A stretch of 64,000 bases of DNA from a virus. Taxonomy: Duplodnaviria; Caudoviricetes. A program made the translations under genes and the position numbers. The stretch covers positions 158,155 through 222,154 of IMG/VR virus record IMGVR_UViG_3300033068_001704; one strand, given 5' to 3'. This document shows positions 12,282 through 64,000 of this stretch, in pieces. The notes beneath the pieces are model-generated. The model worked only from the letters and a program-made list of their open reading frames with translations, searched no databases and was not told the origin of the DNA. Position 1 is the first letter of the stretch. Every line of letters starts with the position of its first letter.

Positions 12282-12673
12282 CCGACATCCTGAAGGATGG
12301 GAGCACGGTGCTCTTCGACCTCCTGAAGAAGGAGGGGATCCCGGCGGTCACCGACTCACTGGACAAGCTCGCTGGGGAGGCCACCGAGGGGTGGCAGAAG
12401 ATGCTCCTCAAGCTCGGGACCCAGCTCGTCTCGAAGCACGGCCCCGATGGCCTCCATCTCTTGGAGGACTACGTCAGCCGGATGATGGCGGGAAAGCCGG
12501 TGGATCTCACCGGGCTCACGATGCGTGAGGCCAGCGACCTCCTCGCAGTGATGCAGAGGAAGGAAGCGGACACGAAGAACCAGGTCCTCCTCTGGACGAA
12601 TCTCATCATTGAGGAGATCGGCAAGGGTCTCGCCCTGCTTGTGTCGGTACTCTTCAAGGAACTTTCTCTGTGA
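12278..12673 (+). CDS. Hypothetical protein
   Basis: GTGA overlap; strong codon bias. Confidence 0.7.
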   Translation: MTDILKDGSTVLFDLLKKEGIPAVTDSLDKLAGEATEGWQKMLLKLGTQLVSKHGPDGLHLLEDYVSRMMAGKPVDLTGLTMREASDLLAVMQRKEADTKNQVLLWTNLIIEEIGKGLALLVSVLFKELSL

Positions 12674-12694
12674 GAGAGTGAAGGAGATTCACCT

Positions 12695-13527: not shown

Positions 13528-14099
13528 GCAGCAACCGCAACGTCTTCGGGGGGATGAACCCGTTTGGCGTGTACGTGCCGATGTCGGAGACGGAGCAGGA
13601 GCTGCTTCATCGATTGGTCGAGGCGAACGAGCTGGTAGTGATCCTCCATGGGTGGGGCCACTTCGAGGCTCCGAAGATTGCGATTGGGGACGCGGCCCTC
13701 CACATCCCCCTCACGCTTCAGTTCGACCGCCCCGAGAACCCGATCCCTGTCTATTTCTTCGACCTCGAACTCCAGACCCGCTCTGGGCTGACTCTCTATC
13801 GTGAGAAGCAGCCGACCGTGTACGGAGGTCAACCCATCGGGGTTGGTGCCGGGACGGAGATCCACATGGTGTGGGACATCGGCATCAAGTGCATCGACCC
13901 CCAGCTCGTCAAGAGGCTCATGCCTGGGACGAGCGGGTTGACGAGCCGGCTGCTCGACAAGGATACGGGGGCCCTCACTCTCACCGGCAACATGAAGCTC
14001 GACTCCGCGAAGGCGAAGCTCCTGAAGCGGGTTCGTGAAGGTGAGGCGCGGGTTCGAGCGGACAAGGAAGCCCAGCTTCGCAAGTACGGGAAGCGGTAG
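13524..14099 (+). CDS. Hypothetical protein
   Basis: ATGA overlap; start at ATG 13524. Confidence 0.7.
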   Translation: MSSNRNVFGGMNPFGVYVPMSETEQELLHRLVEANELVVILHGWGHFEAPKIAIGDAALHIPLTLQFDRPENPIPVYFFDLELQTRSGLTLYREKQPTVYGGQPIGVGAGTEIHMVWDIGIKCIDPQLVKRLMPGTSGLTSRLLDKDTGALTLTGNMKLDSAKAKLLKRVREGEARVRADKEAQLRKYGKR

Positions 14100-14134
14100 G
14101 GAAGCTATCTCCCGCCTCGGTCGAGGCGTGAGCG

Positions 14135-14746
14135 ATGAGTGAAATCGGGAGCGGCGAGAGAGTCGTCATTCTCAGCGACCGGATGAGCACCAGCTCTCCG
14201 GTCGGGGCGGATCAGAACACCCCTGAAACGGGTCGGGTTCTGATCTTCCTGGATTCCGCCAGAGATCTGTGGTCGAAGGACTCGGCAGGAGTCGTCAAGC
14301 CCCTCAACGGGGGGACGCTGTCGGACGCCTCCTGGGAAGCCGTTCTTCCTGCCACGGACCCCACGCCCATCGGGGACATCACCCACCGTGGGAATGCCGC
14401 AGTGGGTCTCCCCCTTGCGGGTCCGATCCTCGCTGGGATCCGATTCCAGGTTGTCGGAGACACGGCGGCTCAAGGCTCCCTCTACGTGGGGGAGATGGAT
14501 GAGTCGGCCGATGTGGCGGACCACAACCAGGTCTTCTCGGACTCGGTGGACCATGGCCTCTTCGCGAAGCCGGACAGTCTTCCGGCGCGTCGGATCGATG
14601 CCCCTGGACTCATCCGCAAGACGCTCCCCGCGTCGGAAACCGTTCGAGTCCCCAACGGCTCCCAGTACCTCACGTATGGGAGCTTCAGTCTTGGGGCAGG
14701 CGCTTCGATCGTCCTCGAAGGCGACGCTGACCTTGTGATTCTGTGA
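14135..14746 (+). CDS. Putative virion protein
   Basis: First gene of the fibre cluster; beta-rich C-terminus. Confidence 0.55.
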   Translation: MSEIGSGERVVILSDRMSTSSPVGADQNTPETGRVLIFLDSARDLWSKDSAGVVKPLNGGTLSDASWEAVLPATDPTPIGDITHRGNAAVGLPLAGPILAGIRFQVVGDTAAQGSLYVGEMDESADVADHNQVFSDSVDHGLFAKPDSLPARRIDAPGLIRKTLPASETVRVPNGSQYLTYGSFSLGAGASIVLEGDADLVIL

Positions 14747-14753
14747 GGACTGT

Positions 14754-15728
14754 ATGAGCAAGATCGTACTGACCGATTCCGCTACGAATCCTGACTCTCC
14801 CGTCTCTGGACAGTCGGCGGTCTTCACGAAGAGTGATGGCCTCTACCTGAAGAACAGCGCGGGGGCGGTCACAGGCCCTCTTGGTGCTGGTGGTGGTGGG
14901 AGCCCGTCGGGTTCGGCGGGTGGGTCCCTTTCTGGGACCTACCCGAACCCTGGGCTGGCCGATGGTGCCGTCGTCGAGGCGAAGCTCGCGGACGGATCCG
15001 TCACGGTCAACAAGATCGGGGCTGGGGCGGTCAACAACGCCAAGCTCGCAACGGACGCAGTCGCGACCGGCAACATCCAGAACTCCGCTGTGACCACGGC
15101 GAAGATCGCGAACGGGAACGTGACAGAGGGGAAGCTCGCCGATGGGAGCGTGAGCCTCACGAAGCTCGTGGGACCTGGGGGCGGGGCGTTCTCCTATGCT
15201 TCCATCCAGGCGGATGGGACCGGGGCCCTGTGGACCATCGGGTACCCGTCCGAGATCCGTTTCGCCTCACCGGACAGGCTTTCTCTCTCGGGGGATGGGG
15301 GGACTGGGACGCCCCTTTTCCTTCAGGCGACGGACTTTTCGATGTCTCAGCCGGCAGGGTACATCCCTCGCACGCAGACCGTCTACCTGACTCCGGTGTC
15401 GTTCCCGACGGTCGTTTCCCTCGATGCGGGACCGTCCACGTTTCATGTGAACGGGGCGGCCGAATCTTGGATCTACCTTCCTGACTCCGCCCTCTATCCG
15501 CCTGGATTCGAGATCGTGGTGTGGAACGCAGAGGGTTCGGATCTCTTCATCGGGGCGAACGGGTCGGGGGTACCGGTCATGCCGACGCCCCCCCTCAACC
15601 GTCGAATCAACAACGTCACAGGGGACCGTGATCTCGCGGAGAACACGGGCCGTCGATTCATGACGCTTGGGACGAGCGTCAACCCTCCCCTGCCTGGCGG
15701 CGGATGGATCGAGATCGGAACCTTCTGA
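14754..15728 (+). CDS. Tail-fibre-like protein
   Basis: GGSLSGTYPNP motif and repeated (A/G)VT..KLADG units typical of phage fibres. Confidence 0.7.
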   Translation: MSKIVLTDSATNPDSPVSGQSAVFTKSDGLYLKNSAGAVTGPLGAGGGGSPSGSAGGSLSGTYPNPGLADGAVVEAKLADGSVTVNKIGAGAVNNAKLATDAVATGNIQNSAVTTAKIANGNVTEGKLADGSVSLTKLVGPGGGAFSYASIQADGTGALWTIGYPSEIRFASPDRLSLSGDGGTGTPLFLQATDFSMSQPAGYIPRTQTVYLTPVSFPTVVSLDAGPSTFHVNGAAESWIYLPDSALYPPGFEIVVWNAEGSDLFIGANGSGVPVMPTPPLNRRINNVTGDRDLAENTGRRFMTLGTSVNPPLPGGGWIEIGTF

Positions 15729-15731
15729 GCC

Positions 15732-16550
15732 ATGGCTGGGAAGTACAACTTCAAGGACGTCGGGTCCGTCAGTCTGGCGCAGACGGACGAGCTTCCTGAT
15801 GTGGATGTGGAAGCTGGGCAGCTTTCCTTCGACGGGGACACCCTCGTCTTGAGGAAGGTGGATGGTCAGACCACCTCTACGATGAGGTTCGTACGGGATG
15901 AGTACGTGGACTACGTGGTGGGTATCGACAACTTCACCGAGCACCTGTTTGCTGCTTGGTTCGAAGAGGCGAATGGGGGGACGGTCGAGATCGGGCCGGA
16001 CCCGAACGCCATCTCGATGAGCCCGCAGCTCTGCGCCACGCTCCCCTTCATGGCAAATGCGGAGTTGCCTTTCTACGCCAGAACGTGGAGAGAGAACACG
16101 TGGTTCTATCCCGCACAGAATCCGGACATCGAGTTTCGGTTCTACCCCTCCCCCAGCAACAACTTCCCCTGGGGGATTGGGCTGTCAAATCCGGACGGGA
16201 CGGCGGTGATGTTGAAGTCTGTGGACATGAATGGCACTCAGGTATGCCAGCTCGTGTTTCAACAGAGCGGGGACATCACCTCCGCGGAGAATGTGACGCT
16301 TCCGGCGCTGGGAAACGCCACCGCCTATCGGATGCGCCTGATCGTGACCGAAGAGGGGGCCACCCTCTTCATGTGTCCGGATGGGGGGACTCTGACAGAG
16401 GTGGCAGAGCTGGTGGAGGAGATCGAATCCACCAATTACATGCCCTACGTCGAAGCGACGACTGACGAAGGCGTCTCAGATACCTCTTCCCTGGTGGTGG
16501 ATTACTGTCGGTGGAGAGCCCTTCGAGTGTTCGCGAACGCCCCCAAGTGA
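15732..16550 (+). CDS. Putative virion protein, possible lectin-like beta-sandwich
   Basis: Beta-rich, ends LVVDYCRW; located in the fibre cluster. Confidence 0.5.
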   Translation: MAGKYNFKDVGSVSLAQTDELPDVDVEAGQLSFDGDTLVLRKVDGQTTSTMRFVRDEYVDYVVGIDNFTEHLFAAWFEEANGGTVEIGPDPNAISMSPQLCATLPFMANAELPFYARTWRENTWFYPAQNPDIEFRFYPSPSNNFPWGIGLSNPDGTAVMLKSVDMNGTQVCQLVFQQSGDITSAENVTLPALGNATAYRMRLIVTEEGATLFMCPDGGTLTEVAELVEEIESTNYMPYVEATTDEGVSDTSSLVVDYCRWRALRVFANAPK

Positions 16551-16553
16551 ACA

Positions 16554-17372
16554 GTGCCGAAGATTGTCTTTCAGAACGATGTGGTCTCTCCGCTGTCGAA
16601 CACGGGGAAGACCATCATCTTCACCAAGGCGGATGGCGTCTACGTCATCACGGAGGACGGGGTAGAAGTCGGTCCTCTTGGTGCTGGCATGGGGTCGATT
16701 GCGGGGGGTGATCTCTCTGGCACGTACCCGAACCCTCAGGTCTACGGTCTTGGGGGAATCCCGATCGACCTCTCCGCCCTCGCTGCGTTCGACGTCCTGA
16801 CCTACGACGGGGCGGAGTGGATCACGATGCCTGGGGGGTCCGGTCCTCCGACAGGTGCTGCTGGCGGAGACCTGGGAGGTCTGTACCCGAACCCGACGGT
16901 CATTCAGATCGGTGGGAACCCGATCTCGAATGATGTCCCCGATGCGGGGGACGTTCTTCAATGGGACGGGTCGGAGTGGGTCCCCAGCGCGAGTCTCAGC
17001 TCGAACGCGGTCACCTCTGGTGCAGGGGCTTGGCTGGCAGGGGAGACCCTTGCGGTTGGGGACGTCGTTCGAGCTTCCTCTACACCCAACACGGTCGTCC
17101 GAGCCGCTCACACCAGCTTCGCGAATGCGACCCCGGTGGTTGGGGTGGTCATCGACCTCCCGTCGGTATCGACGGCCACTGTGGCATACCTTGGGGAGAT
17201 CCTCTGGACTGGTGCGGCCCTGACGCCAGGGGCGACCTACTATCTCAGCTCGACACCTGGGGGGATGACGCTGACCGCGACGACCACCCCCGGGAACGTC
17301 TCCCTTCGGGTCGGATTCGCGAAGAATTCCAACACGTTCGTGATCGCTCCTGGGGAGCCGATCCGGCTGTAG
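16554..17372 (+). CDS. Tail-fibre/decoration-like protein
   Basis: GGDL.G.YPNP x2, GDVL.WDG..W, C-terminal AGE.LA.G...YYLS..PG.MT module. Confidence 0.7.
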   Translation: MPKIVFQNDVVSPLSNTGKTIIFTKADGVYVITEDGVEVGPLGAGMGSIAGGDLSGTYPNPQVYGLGGIPIDLSALAAFDVLTYDGAEWITMPGGSGPPTGAAGGDLGGLYPNPTVIQIGGNPISNDVPDAGDVLQWDGSEWVPSASLSSNAVTSGAGAWLAGETLAVGDVVRASSTPNTVVRAAHTSFANATPVVGVVIDLPSVSTATVAYLGEILWTGAALTPGATYYLSSTPGGMTLTATTTPGNVSLRVGFAKNSNTFVIAPGEPIRL

Positions 17373-17414
17373 TCCAGATTCGTCTATACCCCCGACTTCA
17401 TCGGGATCCCCCCG

Positions 17415-17741
17415 ATGGCTGAAGCACGTCGATACAAGCTCACGCAGGACGTGATCGACTCCTGGTACACCCAGGATGGGCGGTTTCGGTTCCGCATCGG
17501 GTTCGACAAGGACAACGGCCACATCTTCTGCCCTGCCCAGCGTTGCCCGACGATCGACATCGCGGACACCGACGTCATTCAGACGACCAACGCCATGGCT
17601 CAGAAGTGCCTTCGTTTGTACCGCATCCCGCAGGGGGTTCGTCGCAACGGGGAGCCTCCCCCCTCTGGTCCGACGTTCGAGGACGTGACGGACTGGACCC
17701 ATCACGTGGACGTGGATCTCGATCCGTTTTTCACGGGCTAA
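17415..17741 (+). CDS. Hypothetical protein
   Basis: Clean ORF. Confidence 0.65.
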   Translation: MAEARRYKLTQDVIDSWYTQDGRFRFRIGFDKDNGHIFCPAQRCPTIDIADTDVIQTTNAMAQKCLRLYRIPQGVRRNGEPPPSGPTFEDVTDWTHHVDVDLDPFFTG

Positions 17742-17753
17742 CCAGGCGGAGCC

Positions 17754-20700
17754 ATGGCGAATCAGATCCCCCTTTCTGTTGATGCTGGTCGAGTCATCCG
17801 TTTTGGATCGACCGACCAGGTCCTTGCTGATGGCGTCGTTCCCCGGTCTGGCACGACGCTCAGTCTGGGTGATTCGGACACGACCCTCGTCACCGTGGCT
17901 GGGGCTGCGGCAACGGGGATCACGCTCGGTGGCGCTGGGACTCTCGTAGCAATCCCCGGAGACCTGGAGGTCACGGGATCGCTCACCGTCAACTCGGACT
18001 CGATGTTCGACGGAGACACGATCATCGGCGATGCGACCAGCGACACGCTGACGCTGACTGCCCGGATGATCACCTCGATCCTCACCACGGGCACTTCCAC
18101 TGCGACGACGAACGGGTGGGATCTCGGGTCTGGGGCGAACGGATGGAACAACGTCTTCCTGGCGCGCGATGGCGCTGGGAATGCACTCGCAACGGCTCGT
18201 GCTCTGTCGTCCACCAGTGTTGGGGCCTCGGGCGCGACCCTTGTTGGCGTGGACATCACGGCCCTCGCGGTCTCTCCGGCGAACAGCACGCTTCAGGCGG
18301 TTCTGGAGACGCTCTCCACGACGGCAACGGGGGGTTCGTTCCAGACCACGTACGACAACGGACCGGATGTCACCCAGGATGCAACCGGCGGCATCGCGAT
18401 TACGCGGGGGGCCACGAGCGCTGACACGCATGTCCTGCGTCTCGTTCATGGGCAGACCGGCTCTGATGACGTGCTGGAAATCGACCGCTCTCCCGCAGGC
18501 GCGGCGGCGGGTCGTGGCGTCCATGTCGCCATGGGCGCGAACGCGTCGGATGCAGGTCTTGAGGTCTCTCACTCGGGAACGGCAGCCGGGTCGAGAGCAG
18601 CCATCTTCAGCGGTGTCTCCCTCACGTCCAACCGGGGCGTTGTCGAGGTCACGCATCAGGGGTCCGGTGCCGGTCACGGCGTCGTGGTGAACCTTGGGGC
18701 TGCCTCCACCCAGAAGCACCTTCGGCTTGCTCGGGATGCGGGGGCAACCGTCACGACCCTCGACGAGGCCGGCATCACCATCAACGGTGACAGTGCTTCT
18801 GGGACCATCGCGACCTTCAACATCTCGGCGGAGGTCTCCTCTTCGGATGGTGTGGCTGGGACGAACATCGAGATCTCCGCGGCCCCCGGCTCGGCGAGCG
18901 CCTCTATCCAGGGTGGTGATGGCGGCAACCTTGTGTTCGCAGCCGGCGACGGAGCCCTCTCAACAGAGGCTGCCTCAAGCGGTGGTCTGGGTGGTTCGCT
19001 TTCCTTCGTGGCAGGTGCGGGGGGTGATTCCGGCGCCTCGGTGGGACCTGGGTCGGGTGGCTCGATCTCCTTCGTGGCAGGGTCTGCCTCATCAGTTGGG
19101 GCCTTCGGTTCGGCTGCGGGTGGGGGTGTCACCTTCCTGGGCGGGGACAGCTCGGGGGGGAACGGGATCGGGGGTGTCGTCTCGCTCGATCCGGGCCTTG
19201 GGGCAGGGTCGAACGGTTCGATCCTCCTTGGGGTAACGAACACCCCTTACGAGATCCAGTCCGGTTCGAATGGTGGGCGGACGGAGTGGACGCACTTCGG
19301 TCGGATGGTTGTGGATGGGAGTGCTGACGACTCCCTCCTGACGGTTCGAGAGGAGTTTGCCAACCGGTTCGTTGTCTCGACCGCGGGGGGCGCTGGGGCA
19401 CCTCTCGTCACGGTTTACGGTGAGACGGCGGCCAGCTCGAACTACGCGACCGAATTCGAGTTGGCCGACTCGGAGTTCTTGCTCCAGCCGGTCACGGTCC
19501 ATCTCGCGGAAGTCAGTCCGGAAGGTGTCATCGCAGCACTTCCTGGCTCGACCTGTCACGTCCGATTCCCGAGCGCAAACGCAAGCGATGGTCTGTGGGT
19601 CAAGCTCACGGGATCGGGAAACACGGGATGGTCCAAGGTCCAGGCGGGGTCTGGGACCGTTGATTCTCTTCAGTCGGCCTACGAGGCTGGCAACACGGTT
19701 TCGGTCACTACCGCGGAGGGTTCTCTCGCGTTCTCGAACTCTGCGGATGCCACCGACATCCTGACCCTGACGCGAACCTTCGCGGGAGCGGGGGAGGGCC
19801 TGTCGGTTGGGATGGGTCCGAGCAACCAGGCGGTAACGGGTCGAGGCGTCGAGATCATCTCTGGCACTGGTGCCACTGGGTCGATGCTCTTCGTCAACAA
19901 CCTCGGGACGGGGAACGCTCTTCAGATTCAGGACGGAAGCAACGACGTCTTCACGATCGCCGGGACGGGGGCGGTGGCGTTCACCCCGACGAGCGGGTCC
20001 AACCTCTCCGCTACCACGGCAGGGGCCGGGGAGATCACCGTCCAATCCGCCGCTGGTGCCCTCAACATCGTCAACGATGTCTCGACGGGGGCGGGTGGTG
20101 GGATCTCGATCCGCGCAACGTCGTCGGGCTCAGGCACGAGCGGGGATCTGCTTCTGTACTCGGCCACGACTGGGTCTGGTTCGGGGGGCGTCCTTCTCTC
20201 TGCTGGTGTGGCGGTCGCGAACCCCTTGACGGGTCAGATCATCATTCGCGGGAGCGCGGATCTCGATCTCGACGGGGCAAGCGCGACCCTCGACACGACC
20301 GGGGCCATCTCTCTGGATGCTGGTGCGGCATCGAACTTCACGACCTCCGCAGGTGCCCTCACACTGACCAGTGCAGCGGCAGCCACCTGGGGGACGGCAG
20401 CAGGTGCCCTGACTCTCAACGGGGTCTCGGGGATCAACCTCCAGTTCAACGGAAGCACGAAGCTCGCGGTCGCTACCTCCACCCTCACGGTTCAGACAGG
20501 AACCGTCCTCGGAACGACCAACACCGGCAACATCAACCTCCCGAACAACGGGGCGGCTCGGTTCCAGGTCGAGGGGGCGGCGGTAGGGGCGACCGTAACG
20601 GCCGCGAACCTCGACACGCTCACGAACGGGTCGAACGCGGATGCTCTCCATGTCCATGGGGCATCGGGTCTGTTGGTTACGGCAGGGGAAGCGCTCGCTG

Positions 20701-44239: not shown

Positions 44240-47200
44240 TGACTCTCAAAGTCCTCGGTCCGGACGGAACCTACTGCGATGAGGTGGTCTTCTCGACCAC
44301 TTCGACCTCGCGTTTCTTCTCCGGCACGATCAACAACGACACCGCGGACTTGGAGGTGTCGATCCGCGGGGCCGCGTTCACTTCCGACCCGTCTCTCGTG
44401 TCGTTCTCTTCGGAGGGTTGGATCGTCCCGAACCCGACGGCGTACCCGAACGGCTTGGAGCTGTTCGCGGGAGAGAACGTCATCGAGGTCCGGTCGATCC
44501 CGCTCTCCGGGGCCCCCTCTGCCCCGATCTCAGCAACGGTCATCCTCCTCGCTTCGGCGGTCGTTCAGGAGCTTCCGGCGCCCACGGCGATCACGGTCGA
44601 GCGTCTCGACGCCTCGGTGAAGATCTCGGCGCGTGGACTCACGGATGAGCGCGTCATGGGGTACAACTTCTACGCGAGCGCGAACGCTGGCGGAGGAGTC
44701 ACCGGATACAGTCGGGTGAACGCTCAGCCGGTGACGACGGCGGTGACGAAGGAGAACTCCCAGACTCTCTTCAACCTGACGAGCAAGAACACCGCGCAGT
44801 CGGTGGACCCGCTCTTCCTCCGGGCCGTCATCACGCAGGAGGATTCCACGCAGACGACGCTGGAGACCGACGTGGACTCCCCCGTTGAGATCCCCGAGGG
44901 CGTGACGGAGATCCAGACCGAGATCACCGTCTCCTCCATCGAGCGGGTCTCGTACTACGAGTTCCTCCACAACCGCCGGTTCAACCTCGCGTCGCTCCCC
45001 TCGACGATCCCGATCGGCGCCTTCGCCACCCTCCCGGCGACCGAGCCGCTCTACTACGTGGTCTCGGCGGTCTACTTCGACTCGGTCTCCCAGACCGAGT
45101 ACGAGAGCTACTTCTCCCCCGAGGTCGTCGCGAACCCGATCGAGGTTCGGATCCAGATGAAGACGCTCCCGAGCGTCAGCCGTCAGCAGATCACCCAGAA
45201 CTCGATCGCAGTCATTCACCGCAAGGACAAGGACATCCAGATCCAGCCTGGCGCGGTGATGCGGGACACGTTCATCGATCCTCTCGCCTCCGAGGCTGAG
45301 CGGATCCGATTCCTCCTCGACTTCCTGTACCGGGCGTCGAGCTTCGACACTCTTCTGGCGATCGACGACCCGAACGCAACGGGCGTCTCGATCGACCCGA
45401 AGGCTTCGGCCTACAAGATCGCGCTCGCGAACGCGCTCTATCTGTCGAACGTCTCTCTCGTCCAGGGCATCATCGACGGCGCCTTCGACAAGCTCGCGGG
45501 GAACTTCGGAGTTCAGCGAGACCCGGGCCGGCGCGCGATCGGTGAGGCGCGGTTCTTCACCTCGGCCGCCCCGACTTCGACGCGGCCCATCCAGCTCGGG
45601 ACGATCGTGTACGCCGGGGAGGTCGCGTACCGAACCACGCGCAGTGCCGAGATCGCGGTCGAGCGCCTGGCCTCCTACTACAACCCGAGCACCCGGCAGT
45701 ACAGCATCGTGGTTCCCGTCCAGGCGGTGAACCCTGGGATCTCTGGGAACATCGGTCCCCGTCAGATCTCGTCGGGCGCCCCGTACGGCCTCTCGGTCAC
45801 CAACGACAACTACACGTTCGGCGGGCTCAACTCCCAGACGAACGCCCAGCTCGCGGCGGAAGCACGTGGGGCACTCTCCGCGGTCGATACCGGCACGACG
45901 CAGGGCTACGCCCAGGTCGCAGCGGGCGTGCCCGGGGTGATCCAGGCACAGGTCGCAGAAGCGGGGAACTCGCTCATGCAGCGGGACTTCGATGCAGACC
46001 TGGGGCGCCACATCGGGGGCAAGGTCGATGTCTGGGAGCAGGGGCTCCGACTCGCGACCGTGACCGACACCTTCGCGTTCACGTATGTCCGCAAGCGGGA
46101 CATTCAGTTCGTCGTGGTGGGGCCGGCGGATGCGTATCGGCTTCAGGCGGTCGATCCCGACCTGACTCCCACGAACCCGATCGCCGAGATGCTCAACTAC
46201 CCGAGCATCGGGCTCGGGCTGAGGAACGCCACGACTGGTCTGACGTACAACCTCACCGGCGTCACGATCCTGAACTACAACACGATCCAGCTCTCGCTGG
46301 ACGTCTCTCAGCCCTGGGTTCCCCCGACTCTCACGGACGTCATCCTCGGGGACTACCGCTACCGCACCGGCGAGCAGTTCACCCTCACGAGGCAGCCGGT
46401 CGAGACGGTGGATTCGGTGGTCGGGGAAGTCACCGGCACGCTGGACGAGTCGGTCTACGCCCTCGTGCACCCGAACTCCCCGCTGGGGCTCGGGCGTTCG
46501 ACACAGGCCGGCGACTACCTGCTCATCACGGGGTCGGAGGACACGTCCCTGGCTTCTCCGACCGGGGCGATCCTCAACATCACGAACGAGCAGCACATCA
46601 TGGTGGGGGACTACGTCGAGTACGTCCTGCGCCTCGGTGCTGACTCTCTGAGCGTGGTGGTGACCTCGGCGGATGGGTCCGTCACGTACGCAGGGCCGTT
46701 CTCTTCGACGAGCCCGGACTACACGATCGTCGAGGGCGGACAGACAAGCCCCCTCGGGATCAAGCGCACCAGCGGAAGCTCCATCACGGATGGTCAGACC
46801 GTTCTGATCTCCTACAGCTACGTCGAGAACCTGACCGTCACGTACCAGGTCAACCTGGTCACGCAGGCGCTTCAGGACAGGATCGATGCGGAGAAGCACT
46901 CGACGGCCGACGTCCTGGGGAAGTCTGCCATCCCGGTTCCGTGGGATCTCACCTCGACCGTCGTGCTCAAGCGAGGGTTCGTGCAGAGCGCCGTGGATGA
47001 TGCGATCCGCACGCGGCTGGGTCTCCTCACCTCAGGCCTTCGGATGGGCACCCCGCTCCGTCGCTCCGACGTCATCCAGGTCATCGACAAGACGCCGGGC
47101 GTCTCCTACGTCGTGCTCCCCCTGACGAAGATGGTTCGAGCGTTCGGTTCGCAGGTCGCCCGCGACGACATCAACTCGTCGCAGATCTCGGACTCGACCC

Positions 47201-47707: not shown

Positions 47708-48682
47708 TCATTTTGCGTGATTGCGCTTGGGTGGCTTCCACCCAGGGGAAAGTACCCGCAACGGGATCTCCCCTCCTTTGCGAACACCCTCAGCACGGAT
47801 CCGGAGATAAAGCATGTTTGCGGTCACGGACTCTGTGGCCAACGACTCTACAGAAACAGGGATAGAGTCGATCTGATACATACCCTCAAATCTAGTGCAC
47901 TGACCGCATGAACCATGATTTTTCAGTATGTATGCTGGTCTCTGGGTCTTGAGGCCGCATTTCATACACTCACATGACACACAACCTTTCTCATCTCGGT
48001 TTGCATCGGTTACTCTAAACGGGCCAAATATGTCACCAACTCCAACCTTCGACCTCAGGTTTTCACTACTCTCCGCGCTGGCACACTTCCTACATCGCGT
48101 ACTTTTCCCACTGAGCAAGTTGTGTGTTTGGACAACAGCTCGATGACCGCCACACGTACTACCGTGGCAGACACACAACCAAGCACGCTTTGTAGAGCTA
48201 AGGTCTTCCTCCAGAGCCTCCCAAAGACCAAACCTTTGTCCGGCTCTGTCAGAAGGCTTTTTGGGTGCTCCGTAAGAGCGGCACTCGGTGCAAGAGGAAT
48301 CCCCCCTTCGCCTGCAACTATTCAAGTCTTTCTTAGACCGGTATTGCTCGTTCCCACACTTGCACCGGCAGAGCCAGGTGAGCTTTTTGACGTTATCGTT
48401 CGGTCCAGGGCAAACCACAGTCCATGGTCCGAACAGGGATCCGGAAACCATCTCGGGGTCGTGGGCGGCCCTTATCCGTCGCGCACCACTGCGCTGCGCG
48501 CATGTCCGGCACGACGAGGCGTTTTGACTGGTGAGATAGCTTGCCTTGAGTGGCTTCTTCGTCCCACACTCACACTCACATTCGTACCATAGTGCACCGC
48601 GATTATCGCGAACCGGAGGGGTATTCAGAACGGTCCACTTACCGAATTTATCTCCGGTTGAGAGCTTAGTCGCCTTGCTCAT
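47708..48682 (-). CDS. Protein of four Cys-rich repeats of the type found in phage HNH/AP2 homing-endonuclease-like proteins
   Basis: FG.WTV...W.C.C.CG...L....SC..C repeated four times; locally AT-richer DNA. Confidence 0.7.
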   Translation of the reverse strand: MSKATKLSTGDKFGKWTVLNTPPVRDNRGALWYECECECGTKKPLKASYLTSQNASSCRTCAQRSGARRIRAAHDPEMVSGSLFGPWTVVCPGPNDNVKKLTWLCRCKCGNEQYRSKKDLNSCRRRGDSSCTECRSYGAPKKPSDRAGQRFGLWEALEEDLSSTKRAWLCVCHGSTCGGHRAVVQTHNLLSGKSTRCRKCASAESSENLRSKVGVGDIFGPFRVTDANRDEKGCVSCECMKCGLKTQRPAYILKNHGSCGQCTRFEGMYQIDSIPVSVESLATESVTANMLYLRIRAEGVRKGGEIPLRVLSPGWKPPKRNHAK

Positions 48683-50046
48683 CCTACTGCCTCCGCGAGT
48701 TTCCGTTCGACCCACTTCGACGATTCACCGCGTTGACGAGCCAGCCTCTCCAGGACTTTGCGGATCTCAGCCCTCTCATCATCCGCGCGCTTCCGTTTCT
48801 CCAGCTCGGCGTTTTTCAGTTCCTTCAGCTCACGGGTCCGCCTTTCCCGCTCTTCCGAGTAACCTTCCCCGCAGAACGGGCAGGCGAGTGTTCCAGGTGC
48901 GACTTCGGAGACGCGCTCGCACTCGGGACAGTGCTTCCGAACGGGATCCGATGCGTCTTTCACTCGGCCATCCAAGTTCCAGTGACGCGGGTTCTGGGGG
49001 TGGCCGTGGCGGTCGAAGTTGCCGGCGTGGTCGATGTGGATGCAGACCTTGCCCTTCACCGGGCGGACGCCGCGGCCGACGCGCTGGAGGTACTTCGTCA
49101 GGCTCTTGGTGGGACACGCGTCGATCACGCACTTGGCATCGCAGTCGAAGCCTTCCGTGAGCACGTCCACGTTGACAATGACGTCCAGTTTCCCGGCCTT
49201 GAGCTTCGCGAGGATCTCTTCTCGCTCCACCGAGGGGGTCTCTCCGTCCACGTAGCCGACGCGCCGCTTCGTGCCCCGCTTGAACCGATGGACGATCTTC
49301 TGCGCGTGAGCCCGCGAGGCAGCGAACACGATCGCAGCCTCTCCCCGTCCGTGCTTCTCGTATGCGCGAACGACATCACCAACGAGGATGTTGGCGCTCA
49401 TCTGCGAGCCGAGCTGGGAGCGGGCGTAGTCGCCTCCTTGCGACTTCACCCCATTCACCATCGCGCGGATCTTCTCCGGGGGGAGCCCGTAGCTCTCGAC
49501 CTTGGCGATGAACCCGCCCTCGTGCAGCTCGACCGGATTCGACACCTCGAACATCTCCACGAAGGTCTCTCCGAGGCCCTTCCCGTCGAGTCGCTCGGGG
49601 GTAGCGGTCAGCCCGAGGACCATGGCGCGAGGCCGCGCAGCGAGGACAGCCTGGTATCCGTTCGCCTGGATGCGGTGCGCCTCATCGACGATGATGAGGT
49701 TGACGTTCGGGATCTCATCCAGGTGCCCCTGGACGGTCTGGATGCTTGCGACGAGGATGCGGGCGTCGCGGTTGTAGTTCTTGTGCCCGCTCCAGACGCC
49801 GATGTCCTTCTTCGGGACGTTGGTCCGTTCGATGTGCTCGACCGCCTGGTTGAGCAGCTCCTGACGATGTGCCAGCCAGAGCACCTTCGTACAGGGCCCG
49901 AGCTGACGGGCGATCTGGAGGACAACCGAGACGCCGATGACCGTCTTGCCGCTTCCGGTCGGGGACACTGCCACAACGCGACGCGATTTCTGCAAGAGGG
50001 CGACGATCTTCGGAACGGCCTTCTGCTGGTACGGGCGAAGCTTCAT
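48679..50046 (-). CDS. SF2 DEAH helicase (RadD/YejH/UvsW-like) with C-terminal zinc ribbon
   Basis: LRPYQ, SPTGSGKT, IVDEAH, GLTATP, LTEGFD, QRVGRGVR, CPEC...CPFCG. Confidence 0.92.
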   Translation of the reverse strand: MKLRPYQQKAVPKIVALLQKSRRVVAVSPTGSGKTVIGVSVVLQIARQLGPCTKVLWLAHRQELLNQAVEHIERTNVPKKDIGVWSGHKNYNRDARILVASIQTVQGHLDEIPNVNLIIVDEAHRIQANGYQAVLAARPRAMVLGLTATPERLDGKGLGETFVEMFEVSNPVELHEGGFIAKVESYGLPPEKIRAMVNGVKSQGGDYARSQLGSQMSANILVGDVVRAYEKHGRGEAAIVFAASRAHAQKIVHRFKRGTKRRVGYVDGETPSVEREEILAKLKAGKLDVIVNVDVLTEGFDCDAKCVIDACPTKSLTKYLQRVGRGVRPVKGKVCIHIDHAGNFDRHGHPQNPRHWNLDGRVKDASDPVRKHCPECERVSEVAPGTLACPFCGEGYSEERERRTRELKELKNAELEKRKRADDERAEIRKVLERLARQRGESSKWVERKLAEAVG

Positions 50047-50092
50047 TTCCAAGTCCCAGGTGAGTCCCCACGCGCCGTTCGCGTTCTAATAG

Positions 50093-57247: not shown

Positions 57248-57510
57248 TCGACTTCGAAGCCCGGGTGAAGGCGCTCCGAGAGGCCATCGGACCCACCTCG
57301 ACGACCGACGGGGAAGTCCTTCTCGCAGCGCTCCAAGACGTTGCCCTCGCCGCCGGTGCGGCGGAACGGGAGGCGTGTGCAGCGCTCTGCGCCCAGGTGC
57401 GCTGTCGCAATTGGGACTCGAAGGAGTGCGCTTCGCAGATCCGCAGGCGGCCCGAGACGGACCCGGCAACGGTGACCGGCGTCGGGTTCAAAACGGACGT
57501 GAGGGGGTAA
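57244..57510 (+). CDS. Hypothetical protein
   Basis: AAEREACAALC...ECASQIR phage motif. Confidence 0.6.
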   Translation: MIDFEARVKALREAIGPTSTTDGEVLLAALQDVALAAGAAEREACAALCAQVRCRNWDSKECASQIRRRPETDPATVTGVGFKTDVRG

Positions 57511-57532
57511 GAGACCAGCCCCCATCCGTTAC
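57503..57532 (+). promoter_or_regulatory. Phage promoter-like motif copy (GGGGGTAA-N16-CGTTAC)
   Basis: Immediately before the helicase fusion gene. Confidence 0.7.
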
Positions 57533-57554: not shown

Positions 57555-60161
57555 GTGAAGAAGAGCGAAAATACTCTCAGCGTTCGAGGTTTCCAGGGCA
57601 ATCTGGGGAAACACGACGCGTACCGGAAGAACATCGAGATCTTCCAGCGGGAGTCCGGACAGAAGAAGCTTCGCCCCGACCAGCAGTATTGGACCCTTGT
57701 CCTCAACAAGAGCGACGAGGCCACCATCATGAGCCGAGATCTCGGGGTTTCTCCGAGTCAGTTCCATGGTGTGAATCGGGACCCTGAGGTGTACGAGAAG
57801 TGCCTCGCCGAGTACCCCGGGGCCAACCTGTATCTCGGGGATTGGTGTGATGTTCTCGACCAACAGGAAATCTGCCCGAACGGGGGTCTGATCTACATCG
57901 ACTCCACAAGCGAGTTCGATCGCGAGAACGGACACCCGATCGCTTCTGCCATGGTGACGAAGGCCCTCAACCGTGCGGGGGTTGGGACGCTTGTCTGTAT
58001 GAACATGTGTGCCGAGAACCTTCGGCACCCGTCCGCCGAGATCTCCGAGAAGACGTTCGCCGAGCGTCTGCGGAGACAGACCGACAACCCTCAGATGGTG
58101 TCGTACATCGACCGCTACGAACCGCAAAAGAGCTACACCACTCAGATGAGGTGTTTGTACTTCTGGAAGGAAGTACGCGTCAAGTGTGCATCGAGCATGG
58201 TGTACACGTCCAACTCCCCGCCTCCCCCTGCGGACCAGCCTCGTTCGGACGACAAGACCGTCCTGTATCCGTGGCAGAGCGGTTTCGCGAAGGGGATCGT
58301 ATCTTCGTGGAGATCGCGAGTGATCGCGCCCACTGGATCCGGCAAGACGACGCTCATGAAAGCGGCGGGGCAGCTTGCCAACAACGAGGGCAAGCGGGTC
58401 CTGTTCGTGGTCCCTCAGAGGCACATCGGCCTGGCCTTCATTCAGAGGGCGGATCTCATCATCGACGACATGGGGCTCTCTTGCCCTCGCATCGAGCCCA
58501 ACAACGTCTACCTCGACAGCAAGAACGAGTCGTATGGGCGAGATGGGTTCGCCAACGGGCTGTTCACGTGGCTTCAGTCCGCGAAGGCTTCGAATGGGAA
58601 AGGCTCGGCAATCACGTCGATGCACACCCTCGTCCGAGTCGCTGAGCGGGTGAAGGAAGCGGGTCTCAACATCGATGACCTTCTGATCTTCCAGGACGAG
58701 GCTCACCACATCTCCAACGTCTCCATCTCGGCAAGCGATGAGGATTGCACTGAGGAGGAGATCGCTCTGGAGCAGGAGACTGGGACAAAGCTGGGGGCCT
58801 TCTACGAGTACGTCCTGAACCGCACGAAGGCAGGGGTCTGCATCGTCTCCGCCACCCATTTCCGCGGGGACAAGGTCCCGATGTTCCTGGACGATGCGGC
58901 CTACGCACTCCAGAAGTTCGAGCTTCCGTTCCTGGATCATTGGAAGTGGCTCGGGTTCAAGTCGTTCAACTACGACTTCATCGGGTACGACGGGACCTAC
59001 TCCATCGAGACCCTGATCCAGACGATCCGATTCGAGCGTGGCGAGAAGCACATCGTGTGCGTTCCTGGGGACGGTCGGAGGTTTCGCTCCGACCCTGCAT
59101 GGGTCACCCGCCTCTTCACTGCGCTTCGCGCTGAGTTCGGCGAAGATCGAGTGCTCGATCTCGTCACGCCGGGTGGGGTCAGAGACCGAAACAAGATCTC
59201 GATGTTCGAGGACAACGATCTGTTCAAGAAGGGAGAGGAAAGCCGCTTCGATGTCATCGTGGCCTGCAACCTGATGCGCGAAGGCACGGACTGGGGTCCG
59301 GCGACGCGCATCCATGACATGGCCCCCTCGGCAAGCTTGACCAGGACGGTCCAGACGATCGGGAGGCTTCTCCGCAAGGACCGGCATGGGAGGAAGGTGA
59401 CCGTCGCCTACCGTCCGTACTTCAAGAATCTCGACAAGAGAGCGGGTGAGGAGGAGATCCGCGCCCTCACTGCGGACCATGCGAACGTATCTCTCGCGAC
59501 ACTGACCCTGTCCGAAACTCTCTTCGATCCCCCGGATGCTGTCCCTTCTCCGTCGGGAGGTTCGAGCGAACCGAGAGAGACCCTGACGGATCGCCTTGAA
59601 CGTGTGTTCGGGGACCGAAAAGAAGCGGTCCTGAACAGGCTCGTCGCTTCCCTGAACCCGGCCATCAACCCGGCCCGGGGGGATCAGGAGGACAGGGTGA
59701 TCTGGGCACTCCAATCGACGTCCTACAAGGAATTCCTCCAAGATGAATCCCTGAAGGGGCAGGCGCTTTCCGCGCTGAAGGCATTCGCGAACCACCACCT
59801 CCGCAGCGAACATGCGGGGGCAGGGATCGAGATCACCCCTCCCCTGCGTGTCCTCGGAATGAACCCGGAACAGATCCGAGAGGCTGGGTTCGACAAGACC
59901 GTCCGTGGAGATGAGTTCTCGTTCGAGACGAACATGGACACGGAGCAGTTCGAGGAGCTTCAGAAGGTCCTGCGGAAGATCGCTGCCCCTCGCGGGAGCG
60001 ACAAACGGGACAAGGCTGACGCGACCGACCTGAAGCACAACTCGAACAAGAAGAAGGCCCGAAGGGTGAAGACCCTCCTCAAGAAGGGGAAGCTTCTCGG
60101 CCACTCCTCCATCCACTCGACGGAACAGGCCTCGGCGCATGAGAAAGAAAATTTCGACTGA
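57555..60161 (+). CDS. SF2 (DEAH, restriction-type) helicase fused to an N-terminal Rossmann/MTase-like domain
   Basis: LYPWQ, APTGSGKT, QDEAHH, VSAT, LMREGTDW, QTIGRLLR; N-terminal FHGVNRD...LYLGD...LIYIDS. Start inferred from the GGAG RBS and promoter motif. Confidence 0.8.
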   Translation: MKKSENTLSVRGFQGNLGKHDAYRKNIEIFQRESGQKKLRPDQQYWTLVLNKSDEATIMSRDLGVSPSQFHGVNRDPEVYEKCLAEYPGANLYLGDWCDVLDQQEICPNGGLIYIDSTSEFDRENGHPIASAMVTKALNRAGVGTLVCMNMCAENLRHPSAEISEKTFAERLRRQTDNPQMVSYIDRYEPQKSYTTQMRCLYFWKEVRVKCASSMVYTSNSPPPPADQPRSDDKTVLYPWQSGFAKGIVSSWRSRVIAPTGSGKTTLMKAAGQLANNEGKRVLFVVPQRHIGLAFIQRADLIIDDMGLSCPRIEPNNVYLDSKNESYGRDGFANGLFTWLQSAKASNGKGSAITSMHTLVRVAERVKEAGLNIDDLLIFQDEAHHISNVSISASDEDCTEEEIALEQETGTKLGAFYEYVLNRTKAGVCIVSATHFRGDKVPMFLDDAAYALQKFELPFLDHWKWLGFKSFNYDFIGYDGTYSIETLIQTIRFERGEKHIVCVPGDGRRFRSDPAWVTRLFTALRAEFGEDRVLDLVTPGGVRDRNKISMFEDNDLFKKGEESRFDVIVACNLMREGTDWGPATRIHDMAPSASLTRTVQTIGRLLRKDRHGRKVTVAYRPYFKNLDKRAGEEEIRALTADHANVSLATLTLSETLFDPPDAVPSPSGGSSEPRETLTDRLERVFGDRKEAVLNRLVASLNPAINPARGDQEDRVIWALQSTSYKEFLQDESLKGQALSALKAFANHHLRSEHAGAGIEITPPLRVLGMNPEQIREAGFDKTVRGDEFSFETNMDTEQFEELQKVLRKIAAPRGSDKRDKADATDLKHNSNKKKARRVKTLLKKGKLLGHSSIHSTEQASAHEKENFD

Positions 60162-60164: not shown

Positions 60165-60193
60165 GGGGTAAAACCACCCCCCTGATTCGTTAC
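60165..60193 (+). promoter_or_regulatory. Phage promoter-like motif copy (GGGGTAA-N16-CGTTAC) upstream of the cas12-like gene
   Basis: Between the helicase stop and ATG 60211 (GGAGAG RBS). Confidence 0.7.
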
Positions 60194-60210
60194 TCCTGTA
60201 CGGAGAGACC

Positions 60211-62100
60211 ATGAAGACCAAGACCAAGACGGCCACCAAGACGGCCACCAAGACCCACATCGACCTCGTTCTTCGTGCCCGTCTCGCGGAGCGCGGTTCG
60301 GCAGGTTCGGCCGTTCGTCGCGAGGCCCGGATCGTCATCTTCGGGGCGGACCAGCAGACCCCGCACCCGGACTCGGAGAAGATCGTCGAGGACGATCTCC
60401 GAGGCACCCACGAATACTACAACCGCCTCGTTCGGGCGGTGTCCCCGAAGTACAAGAAGGCACGGGGACTCGTCGTCGGTCCGGAGGCGCGCAAGCAGGA
60501 GCTTCGGGAGAAGCAGATCTCTGCCCTGTATCAGGAGCGTCACGACTGCGCGAAGTCGGAGGAGGCTCGGATCAACGAGGAGATCCTGAAGCTGAAGCAG
60601 GAACGCCGAGAGTCCTGGGCGCTCGTGGACAAGGAGCGGACGGCCCTCCGGAAGAAGAACGCGGAGAAGATCCAGGACCTCATCGGACCTTCGACGATCA
60701 CGCCCCTGATCAAGGCGGAACGCAACCGCGTCTCCGTCTACGGGAAGACCCGCCAGAGCAGCGACCCGACGATCGGTTGGGGCAACTACACGCTTGCGGA
60801 GAAGGACTTCGGTCTCGCGACCCGCAAGGCGTTCAATCTCAAGAGCATCCCCCACTTTCGTGGTGAGGACCGTGATGGGACCGCCCCCGAGGACTTCCGG
60901 GCGTACAAGTTCTGGCAGAAGGACGGGACGCTTCGCTCCGACTTCACGCAGAAGAACCACCACGCACATCGCACGCCCGAGGCGATCTTCGGTGGGAAGG
61001 GGAAGCTGATGACAATCCGCCCCTTCGAGGAGTCAGACCTGGCTGCCTTCAACCTCCCTGCCGCGTTCTGGGACCAGATCGCTCGGCATCGCAGCGAGGG
61101 AAAGCCCGACCGGTGGTACGTCATCCTCATCGTCCGGAACGGGACCAAGGTCCCCGATGCGGACTGGTACGGGGTCGTCGCCAACTTCCCCGCTGGGTCG
61201 AAGCAGACCCCGAGCCTCTTGGATCGACTGCGATCGGTCGATCACGTCACGGAAGCTCGGATCGTGAGGAAGAAGCAGGGCCTTCGACTGGAGACCCACG
61301 TCAACCTCCACGTCAAGATCGCGGTGGCTGCCAAGGTCGCACGAGAGACGGTCGAGGTGAGCTGGGGCTCGTTCACGAACAAGGGGGTCGGGAAGCTTCT
61401 CGTCACGTACCCCGATGGTCGAGTGGACGAGTTCTCCGAGGCGAACGTCCCCGCGCTGCTTCGCTGCCGTCAGCACGAGGAGACGAGCAGGAAGCTCCAC
61501 GAGTCCCTCTCCAAGCATGAGAAGGATGCTCGGAAGGCCTTCAAGACGCTGAACCTCGACCCCTCGATCATCTGGGATCGGGAGGAGTTCCCCCGGAGTC
61601 CCGGATCGATCCGCCACGTGTATCGGCGACTGTTCCGAGACGAGATGGTCGAGGCGCTGGGGGGAGAGGCTGCCCGCGAGAAGCGCGATGAGATCATGCG
61701 CCTGTGCCTCAAGCTCTACCGTCAGCCCGGACCGGATGGTGAGAAGAACCCCTACGGGGGAGACCCGGACCAGGCACGGGAGATCGTCGCCATGCGGATG
61801 GCAGAGATCTTCCCGATCTCCGAAGACAAGGCCGCCGCGATGGCAGTGGTGTTCGTCTTCATGGAGCGGTTCAACCACCTCGCCGACTGGGCGCACCGGT
61901 CCGGCTTCCGGTACCACACGTCTCGACGCGAGTTCTACCGCACGTTCGCGGCGGAGCTGTGCCAGAAGTACAACGTCACGTACCTTCGTCCGCCCAAGGC
62001 AGGTCGTAAGGTCTCGGGAGACCGGAGCGTGGTCGCCCCGTTCGTCCTGGAGACGATCCTCAAGACCGCGGCGCTGAAGATGGGACGCGCGTGGGAGTGA
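60211..62100 (+). CDS. Type V CRISPR effector, Cas12m-like, predicted nuclease-dead and C-terminally truncated
   Basis: Abuts the CRISPR leader. Cas12m-like segments: IFG...LRGTHEYYNRLV, coiled coil, IGWGNYT, FW..DGTL, HLADW...RREFYRTFAAEL...Y, RSVVAPFVL..IL..AA.K.G. No RuvC D/E/D triad or zinc finger recognisable. Confidence 0.7.
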   Translation: MKTKTKTATKTATKTHIDLVLRARLAERGSAGSAVRREARIVIFGADQQTPHPDSEKIVEDDLRGTHEYYNRLVRAVSPKYKKARGLVVGPEARKQELREKQISALYQERHDCAKSEEARINEEILKLKQERRESWALVDKERTALRKKNAEKIQDLIGPSTITPLIKAERNRVSVYGKTRQSSDPTIGWGNYTLAEKDFGLATRKAFNLKSIPHFRGEDRDGTAPEDFRAYKFWQKDGTLRSDFTQKNHHAHRTPEAIFGGKGKLMTIRPFEESDLAAFNLPAAFWDQIARHRSEGKPDRWYVILIVRNGTKVPDADWYGVVANFPAGSKQTPSLLDRLRSVDHVTEARIVRKKQGLRLETHVNLHVKIAVAAKVARETVEVSWGSFTNKGVGKLLVTYPDGRVDEFSEANVPALLRCRQHEETSRKLHESLSKHEKDARKAFKTLNLDPSIIWDREEFPRSPGSIRHVYRRLFRDEMVEALGGEAAREKRDEIMRLCLKLYRQPGPDGEKNPYGGDPDQAREIVAMRMAEIFPISEDKAAAMAVVFVFMERFNHLADWAHRSGFRYHTSRREFYRTFAAELCQKYNVTYLRPPKAGRKVSGDRSVVAPFVLETILKTAALKMGRAWE

Positions 62101-62286
62101 GGTAGGTGCGAGAGGGTCGGTGGCCCTCAAAACCCTGGACCCGCTCGAACTCCAGTAAATCCAGGTATTTGCCTGGCTTTGACAACTGAATAAGTGCCTT
62201 AGAACCCACTATGAAAAGTGGGTCTCTTGGGGCCTCTCGCAAACCAGACTGTAACTAGTCGAATTTGCTAGGGTCCCAAGGGACCC
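62101..62286 (+). promoter_or_regulatory. CRISPR leader
   Basis: Non-coding, AT-richer, TTGACA at 62179, TGCGAGAGG/CCTCTCGCA inverted pair, adjacent to repeat 1. Confidence 0.8.
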
Positions 62287-64000
62287 TCTCCAGAGCCTCC
62301 CGATCGGCTTCGTAGATCAGACATGCCGGTTACGATTCTCGACCCTGTAACCACAGACGATGTCTCCAGAGCCTCCCGATCGGCTTCGTAGATCAGACAG
62401 GCGCCCCCCGAGAGCGTCGGGAACAACGTGCTCGGTCTCCAGAGCCTCCCGATCGGCTTCGTAGATCAGACGTAGGGATCCACTTCCCCCCTGCGAGCAT
62501 CAGCTCAAGAGCTTCCAGAGCCTCCCGATCGGCTTCGTAGATCAGACAGGAGTCGGCACTGCTGGAGTTCGACCGTGATCGCCGTGCTTCCAGAGCCTTC
62601 CGATCGGCTTCGTAGATCAGACAACCTCGTGCCGGACGACCTCTCGAACACGACGAGCGTCGCTTCCAGAGCCTCCCGATCGGCTTCGTAGATCAGACAA
62701 CTGGCGGAACACGGATGACCGGCGTGAACACCAGCGCTGCTTCCAGAGCCTCCCGATCGGCTTCGTAGATCAGACTCGTCGTGTACGTGGCAGTGCCCGA
62801 GCACGCCCCGGTACTTCCAGAGCCTCCCGATCGGCTTCGTAGATCAGACTTCAGAGAAGCGGACTCGGCAGGCGCTGCGATCTCCATCTTCCAGAGCCTC
62901 CCGATCGGCTTCGTAGATCAGACTTCAGCATCGCAGCGCCCTTCACGGAGTAGGTGGGGTGACTTCCAGAGCCTCCCGATCGGCTTCATAGGTCGGACAG
63001 TCAGTCCACGGTGAGCGGTCGCGCTCCCCGCGTGATCTTCCAGAGCCCCCTGATCGGCTTCGTAGATCAGACCTCGTAGCGGTCGCGGAGAGAGACCACC
63101 GCGCCCTCCTTCCAAAGCCTCCCGATCGGCTTCGTAGATCAGACGAGAGCCTAGACTCGTTCCTGAAGCGTTGGACCGCTTCCAGAGCCTCCCGATCGGC
63201 TTCGTAGATCAGACGGCAGGTAGCCCTTGGGCAGAGGGTTCTGCGGGATGACGCTTCCAGAGCCTCCTGTTCGGCTTCGTAGATCAGAATACACGCGAGA
63301 GCTTCTCGACTCCATGCCTCCGTGGTTGACTTCCAGAGCCTCCTGATCGGCTTCGTAGGTCAGACGGCAAGCTCTACTTCACCATCCTCGACTTCCGGGA
63401 GGCGACTTCCAGAGCCTTCTGATCGGTTCGGTGCTGGGACTGAAAAGACCCAAAGCCCCCCGATCGGCCTCGTAGATCGGACCAGGCGAGGCCAGAGCAC
63501 GTCTCGGAACGATGCCCCCCTCCAAAGCCCCCTGATCGGCCTCGTAGATCGGACAACCTGCACACCAAGCCTCCCGATTGGCTTCGTAGATCGGATGGCG
63601 GTGGATCGCGAACGGCAACCACCTGCGGATCACGTCACTCTTCGAGCCTCCCGATTGGCTTCGTAGATCGGACTGCCCCGACCAGCGCAAAGTAGAGCCT
63701 CCCGATCGGCTTCGTAGATCAGACCTGACGCAGAAATGGCCGGTAGCTCGGTGTCCGACTCCCCATAGCCTCCTGAATGGCTTCGTAATTCAGACTGGAT
63801 CTATCGCCACTGGGCCTCCCGATTGGCTTCGTAGATCGGACCATGCTCGCGCAGCGTAGCCACGAGGCCGGTGACCTTGAGCCAGGACTTCACTTCACTC
63901 ATCGACACCCGGTTACTGCCTTCCAGAGCCTCCCGATCGGCTTCGTAGATCAGACAGCTCCTGCCAGCCTTCGATCACGACGAAGAGCAGCCCGTCTTCC
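62287..64000 (+). CRISPR. CRISPR array, 36-nt repeat CTTCCAGAGCCTCCCGATCGGCTTCGTAGATCAGAC, at least 24 repeats plus the start of another; continues past the window end
   Basis: Repeats start at 62287, 62363, 62436, 62512, 62587, 62663, 62740, 62814, 62888, 62963, 63037, 63109, 63179, 63254, 63330, 63406 (truncated), 63447 and 63519; degenerate copies run to 63841; intact repeat at 63920; partial at 63996. Unique spacers are mostly 34-41 nt. Confidence 0.98.

Follow-up and report, generated by a model that had tools for sequence, protein, structure and literature searches.

Subtype V-M Cas12m proteins are the closest described relatives of the system reported here. The structures available for MmCas12m2 (PDB codes: 8hhl and 8hio) and GoCas12m (PDB code: 8pm4), with the further Cas12m entries 23vw and 23vu, show a common fold of about 600 amino acids (aa) with a sickle-shaped REC2, served by repeats of 36-37 nt that form a stem and a pseudoknot and end in AC, and the proteins are expected to act without cleavage (PMC10442227, PMC11013384). 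Characterised orthologues keep an HDD, NDD, or DED triad in RuvC, together with the TNB zinc finger and RuvC-III, being His317, Asp485, and Asp579 for the triad and His549-Cys572 for the zinc finger in MmCas12m2 (PMC10442227). The RuvC pocket of Cas12m2 grips the displaced strand, which serves tight binding (PMC10442227), and Cas12m proteins silence without partners (PMC11013384). Here, we describe a nuclease-dead Cas12m derivative that lies between a CRISPR array and a gene for a methyltransferase (MTase)-fold protein fused to a helicase, in the last 64,000 nt (positions 158,155 to 222,154; hereafter the window, to which coordinates refer) of the phage record IMGVR_UViG_3300033068_001704. On balance, and with modest confidence, we read this locus as a type V-M variant that large phages use mainly for counter-defence; it would not cut, and a helicase would assist it in the manner of DinG in type IV-A.

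The cas12 gene (60211..62100, + strand) encodes a protein of 629 aa with an isoelectric point of 9.8, comprising WED, a REC1/REC2 coiled coil, and a RuvC core with a helical insertion at about residues 480-545. An earlier note on this DNA, made from its letters alone, had recognised a Cas12m-like protein; the motifs it quoted are present, and structure comparison agrees. The AlphaFold model (predicted local distance difference test, 78; predicted template modelling score, pTM, 0.56) has a WED-REC1/REC2-RuvC arrangement closest to Cas12m, the top four Foldseek matches being all Cas12m (E from 9e-15 to 2e-10, the next match at 6e-5). Also, the VIA structure comparison of residues 36-629 with Cas12m gives a Z of 16.9 (root-mean-square deviation, rmsd, 9.4, with 459 aligned), the next family reaching 11.3. 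A family profile finds only Cas12m chains in the PDB at E < 1e-5 (best 1e-34), and PADLOC reports Cas12u1 at E 1.5e-6 for the window protein and about 1e-28 for two relatives. Searches of Pfam, NCBIfam, PHROGs, and, with the single sequence, the PDB gave no match, and word-indexed homologue searches returned the protein itself and one weak match only.

The acidic catalytic residues are missing, as had been proposed: profile alignment to the solved Cas12m places S384 at the RuvC-I position and L592 at RuvC-II, the third position being deleted. The model aligns to residues 1-549 (of 604) of GoCas12m and 1-538 of MmCas12m2 and, given the position of the zinc finger in MmCas12m2, the 629-aa protein ends just before it and before RuvC-III. 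However, the idea of a minimal single-protein system, reduced even further than Cas12m, fits poorly. The RuvC helical region carries an insertion of about 58 aa that is specific to the family (about 57-59 extra residues, with 75 versus 18 and 106 versus 47 positions against the two solved Cas12m); this takes the protein beyond the length of MmCas12m2 (596 aa) and indicates a remodelled protein and not a minimal one. This insertion and the two conserved partner genes of the family, present at 13 of 14 loci, set it apart from the characterised V-M Cas12m. By fold, sequence profile, and CRISPR RNA (crRNA), the protein descends from V-M, but since both the RuvC triad and the zinc finger of the characterised proteins are absent, it is a derived V-M variant and not a plain member.

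An exhaustive search recovered 15 Cas12 relatives, 13 of them long enough to cover the C terminus. These 13 are full-length, have about 20-40% identity, and stop at a comparable place with no zinc finger: the last RuvC strand is the same, and a short tail follows it (relative P0007 stops somewhat earlier). No aligned relative has an acidic residue at the RuvC-I position, being neither Asp nor His, and no CxxC occurs in 12 family members. A common end point across such deeply diverged relatives means that the truncation is old and shared, and its family-wide conservation rules out the assembly error or recent pseudogenisation that the earlier note had considered. No remnant of zinc-finger coding sequence was recognised in the leader directly after the cas12 stop codon, and a pattern scan of GTDB contigs, which is an insensitive method, did not recover the module.

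The leader (186 nt; 62101..62286, +) begins directly after that stop codon and is followed by the array of 36-nt repeats ending in AGAC (62287..64000, +), which confirms the gene order noted earlier. The array has at least 23 repeats and continues past the contig end, which falls inside it; besides 23 copies, one more degenerate copy lies near 63406. The 15 leader-proximal units are regular, with spacers of 34-41 nt, and decay is seen in the distal part. Ten loci yielded arrays, whose right-anchored repeats differ widely in sequence while a stem and a pseudoknot are kept by covariation. A 6-bp stem closes a 9-nt loop before the final AC (58 of 60 cells paired), the loop of the MmCas12m2 repeat being 8 nt, and this loop pairs with the 5' part of the repeat in a pseudoknot (37 of 40 cells), with changes on both sides. 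No shuffle among 20000 paired as well and slid controls reached 14-24, although these controls favour the stem and pseudoknot because the structure was derived from those same repeats. Moreover, in the window array a C-A mismatch in the consensus stem is repaired in 10 of the 23 copies. The correspondence of this fold to the crRNA architecture of Cas12m orients the array on the + strand. For a trans-activating crRNA, no repeat-like copy was seen outside the array and Rfam had no match; a 16-nt complement at 59353-59368 falls where helicase motif VI is encoded, and we regard it as fortuitous.

Some arrays of relatives have a different layout. Locus L021 (10950-11830) has about 18 degenerate short repeats with a 46-49-nt period and spacers of about 16-20 nt, a size near the 17-bp heteroduplex of Cas12m2, and L002 has a short irregular array resembling it; both are possibly streamlined guide arrays. 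In addition, L002 carries a single repeat-like copy (5057-5077) about 2.3 kb upstream of the module, and the phage at L007 has several leader and mini-array copies (7870-7905, 10185-10372, and 12952-13125), with a repeat-like sequence just before the cas12 start codon.

Upstream of cas12, one 868-aa open reading frame (ORF; GTG at 57555 to 60161) joins an MTase-fold domain to a helicase, a fusion also seen in L001 and L023, which are close relatives of each other; the MTase-fold protein is a separate gene in most relatives. The helicase part (58242..60161, +) belongs to superfamily 2 (SF2; ResIII/XPB-like), and its Walker A, DEAH, and motifs III, V, and VI are intact and invariant among the Cas-linked helicases. 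Its best PDB matches are XPB/Rad25 and LlaGI. Cas3 models score far below their cut-offs (27 against 400 and 21.8 against 102 bits), DinG models match weakly and only at the N-terminal helicase motifs, and no HD nuclease domain was found in it. The N-terminal domain (about 200 aa; 57555..58181, +), delimited by alignment with 8 homologues, is predicted to have a class I S-adenosylmethionine (SAM)-MTase fold. For the L012 homologue, a model with a pTM of 0.84 gives a Z of 12.9, rmsd of 3.3-3.6, about 170 aligned residues, and a Foldseek E of 4e-7, nearly all top rows being SAM-MTases. Residues Y35, W36, E45, G62, G85, G101, D106, T133, N138, and M194 are invariant, and the consensus contains neither the glycine-rich motif I (GxGxG) nor DPPY/NPPY.

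The association of these genes is persistent. An SF2 helicase gene (about 650 aa) lies immediately upstream of cas12 at 13 of 14 loci, and an MTase-fold protein of 190-240 aa precedes the helicase at all 12 loci whose contig extends far enough. The helicase-cas12 adjacency is kept despite about 20-40% identity, GC contents of 35-63%, and unrelated flanking genes; at L016, the array sits between helicase and cas12. Also, the Cas12 and helicase trees are broadly congruent, with matching supported clades (Mantel rho 0.52, p 0.012, n = 11), and 12 of 13 Cas-linked helicases form one supported clade, that of L016 grouping with two Cas-less helicases. More distant MTase-helicase pairs have neither Cas12 nor a CRISPR array, and several Cas-less relatives are fused to tandem peptide repeats or lie beside them, INT_rpt and HNH_repeat being among these. 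Judged from sequence, we infer that the MTase-helicase pair may be an older module that accepts different DNA-recognition heads.

Two further observations concern the Cas-less relatives. The helicases at L019 (722-4549), L029 (883-3672), and L030 (2199-5075) carry C-terminal tandem peptide repeats (55-aa, 95-aa, and INT_rpt) that are candidate protein-based DNA readers. The surroundings of L022 are bacterial or plasmid-like; there, five variably spaced 25-nt repeats (7042-7362) are followed downstream by a sigma-70 gene, an HNH_repeat gene, and a Cas-less MTase-helicase pair.

The MTase-helicase gene and cas12 are each preceded by their own copy of a common promoter-like motif, GGGTAA-N16-CGTTAC, at 57504..57532 (+) for the MTase-helicase and at 60165..60193 (+) for cas12. 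The earlier note had called it a phage promoter motif, and its distribution in the contig agrees: there are 8 copies, every one at a spacing of 16, with none at spacings of 10-15 or 17-24. The others are at 36639, 51639, 52947, 54422, and 55975 in the window and at contig position 21. The motif resembles an alternative-sigma promoter, and both module-preceding copies overlap short inverted repeats, the second box of the copy at 57504 lying in the inverted-repeat loop. In the lower-GC relatives L004 (1660-1700) and L008 (9950-9985), cas12 has its own sigma-70-like TTGACA promoter between the helicase gene and cas12.

Candidate targets were recognised at the protein level for two spacers. Spacer 15 (63366..63405, +), when translated, matches the stretch of EcoAI-type HsdR that follows helicase motif VI, and spacer 12 (63145..63178, +) the C-terminal region of EcoAI/EcoEI-type HsdR, both in the coding sense. 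Spacer 15 matches NF046051, the EcoAI/FtnUII restriction subunit, at E 0.007, which is marginal alone after multiple testing; it is also the sole PADLOC match among 61 spacer frames, and 5 of 5 tblastn matches in plasmids fall inside the EcoAI/FtnUII restriction subunit gene. Scored against the three HsdR sequences most similar to spacer 15, this spacer reaches 51.0 (0 of 20000 shuffles) and spacer 12 reaches 34.7 (2 of 20000), the other 19 spacers remaining at or below 20.7; with a broader nine-sequence HsdR profile, spacer 12 is weaker (p 0.03). The type I restriction subunit (HsdR) gene is therefore a candidate among the targets of the dead Cas12m, as far as translated spacers can indicate. 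With both spacers in the coding sense, base pairing of the crRNAs would be to the template strand, and for dead Cas12a this orientation gives the strongest block to elongation. In HsdR homologues, the flanking sequence is weakly suggestive of a Tyr codon ahead of spacer 12, and a T-rich protospacer-adjacent motif would be a guess. L012 spacer 2 also gave a possible HsdR match (p 0.0013, with about 50 spacers considered), but it disrupts a conserved motif and we discarded it. Self-targeting was not counted either: the 3' half of spacer 4 has an exact 18-nt match to 44583-44600, distal to the expected seed. This match lies inside a large phage gene, and spacer 4 may come from a related phage.

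Helicases that join nuclease-less CRISPR effectors have precedents (PMC11656645, PMC10910872). For example, the Cas12-Cas3 hybrid also combines a non-cutting Cas12m with an SF2 helicase, but there the partner is a type I-C-like Cas3 with an HD nuclease (PMC10910872), whereas here a SAM-MTase-fold domain takes that position and the helicase is not Cas3. Type IV-A (Csf complex and CasDinG) is likewise element-borne, nuclease-less, often without adaptation genes, and uses a helicase for silencing; the functional likeness is our proposal, and the components differ, being a multi-subunit Csf effector with DinG in one case and a single-protein, class 2 Cas12 with an XPB/ResIII-like helicase in the other. 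In CasMu-V (PMC10910872), Cas12 likewise became inactive when it lost RuvC-III, and it acquired a partner, the Mu transposase, which was not recognised among the Pfam-labelled neighbours of the window family loci, where many neighbours are unlabelled. The phage MvCas12m (bioRxiv 10.64898/2026.09.14.751636) is also a phage-encoded V-M protein with an array and without cas1, cas2, or cas4; however, it keeps D305, E463, and D555, and the accessible part of that preprint reports no helicase or MTase partner. Finally, flagellin-associated TnpBs (PMC10691335) are also substituted at RuvC-I and RuvC-II, truncated before RuvC-III, and assigned a binding-only role, but they are TnpB proteins with a predicted non-CRISPR guide, no array, and no helicase. 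No published description of a module of dead Cas12m, helicase, and MTase-fold protein was found in the literature covered, from which subscription journals were largely lacking, and the accessible part of the 2025 CRISPR classification holds no such variant. Thus, the helicase-linked dead Cas12m module is apparently undescribed, in line with the earlier suggestion of a new type V variant.

In the helicase-assisted reading, both proteins would be expressed from the common promoter type, the motif being observed and the shared timing presumed. The array would yield Cas12m-type crRNAs, whose fold is kept by covariation and whose self-processing would follow that of Cas12m, and the Cas12m-crRNA complex would bind double-stranded DNA flanked by a protospacer-adjacent motif (PAM) without cutting it, as expected from the lost active site. 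In Cas12m2 the displaced strand is held by the TNB/RuvC-III end, and with that end lost this strand would be left exposed; the helicase could then load on it, translocate with ATP, and strengthen or spread the transcription block, as DinG does in type IV-A. The MTase-fold domain, known from its modelled structure, would travel with the helicase as a SAM-binding regulator or modifier. With a type I restriction subunit gene among the targets, the restriction system would be silenced and its DNA left undestroyed. Spacers would be supplied in trans by a host adaptation module. Several points weigh against this proposal. The congruence of the trees can be explained by vertical descent of a phage gene block. 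L010 has a dead Cas12 and an array without the adjacent MTase-helicase pair, the pair occurs without Cas12 in L019, L022, L028, L029, and L032, and the helicase of L002 is split in two ORFs. Moreover, no nucleotide-level protospacer or PAM was found in phage and plasmid collections, four exact IMG/VR scans, three other phage records, and one metagenome-assembled genome (MAG); only 2 of the 21 window spacers have an assignable target, at the protein level, and a PADLOC scan of the arrays of three relatives gave no spacer with an assignable target.

An unlikely reading, although one to be taken seriously, is that the dead Cas12m alone acts as a CRISPR interference (CRISPRi) roadblock that represses targets such as hsdR, the MTase-helicase being a co-regulated neighbour with its own job. 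The partner-free silencing by described Cas12m proteins would fit, as would the separate promoter motif of each gene, the missing pair at L010, and the pairs that occur without Cas12. However, the adjacency at 13 of 14 loci across such divergence and the position of the array at L016 speak for a functional unit, and a lone roadblock should retain the tight-binding pocket described for Cas12m2, which is lost here. This loss would make a weaker roadblock, yet it suits a platform for helicase loading. A compact stand-alone CRISPRi scaffold, as the earlier note envisaged, may therefore need the helicase/MTase partner.

It is more doubtful that the output is an RNA-guided DNA mark, with an enzymatically active MTase-fold domain that the dead Cas12m would bring to the target and the helicase would spread. 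The predicted class I SAM-MTase fold with its invariant residues, from Y35 to M194, and the fusion to the helicase in the window and in L001/L023 could be so read, and the tandem peptide repeats in or near several Cas-less modules suggest a swappable DNA-recognition part. But, besides the missing GxGxG and DPPY/NPPY, the domain has no PC at the position typical of C5-MTases and no separate target-recognition domain, and in structure it is most like generic MTases that act on small molecules and RNA, with identities of 6-14%. A related scenario, which we hold equally doubtful, is that an older phage MTase-helicase module took the dead Cas12m as a programmable targeting head and both marks and silences host defence genes along the helicase track.

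A Cas3-like destruction, in which the helicase would begin unwinding at the R-loop and the target, be it a host gene or a rival element, would be degraded by a nuclease acting in trans, appears improbable. It has the Cas12m-Cas3 and DinG-HNH precedent (PMC10910872), and genes downstream are out of view where the contig ends inside the array; nonetheless, neither HD nor HNH is present in the helicase, and where relatives have long flanks their annotated neighbours include no nuclease gene in common. Finally, a decaying relic or pseudogene, to which the degenerate distal array, the split helicase and degenerate array of L002, and L004, without an array within 4.8 kb downstream, could point, is very improbable in view of the open full-length ORFs with one end point across deep divergence, the intact helicase motifs, the 15 regular leader-proximal units, and the compensatory repeat changes.

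If the helicase-assisted reading is right, type IV-A would have a counterpart in class 2, whose effector works with an MTase-fold protein and a helicase that has no nuclease. The nuclease-dead type V systems described so far act on their own (Cas12m and Cas12c) or direct a transposase, a sigma factor, or Cas3. The window locus adds to its family a fused partner, a common promoter motif, and a first candidate target, the type I restriction subunit, and two genes with a mini-array would suffice for a direct test of whether phages turn non-cutting CRISPR on innate immunity. Moreover, if Cas12m works without zinc finger and RuvC-III, this would show which parts a binding scaffold needs.

The contig itself is a linear virus record of 222 kb, about 50% complete, with 63% GC, the window being its last part. 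Its phage identity, as the earlier note had it, is supported by a terminase, an HK97-fold major capsid protein, 38 tRNAs, and a transfer-messenger RNA (contig 74947-75329), 37 of the tRNAs forming a cluster (contig 9273-20013). The absence of cas1, cas2, and cas4 noted for the window extends to the whole contig, where Cas1, Cas2, and Cas4 gave no match, in a record that is about half complete and breaks inside the array; Cas1 was also not found in a 91%-complete, 360-kb relative. The host may be a member of Myxococcota, a guess that we make from the 63% GC and some secreted-protein styles; the sole genome match is probably another phage contig within a MAG, and no host was assigned from it. 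A second, stand-alone SF2 helicase, unrelated to the Cas-linked one and with a zinc-ribbon tail, is encoded at 48679-50052 (- strand).

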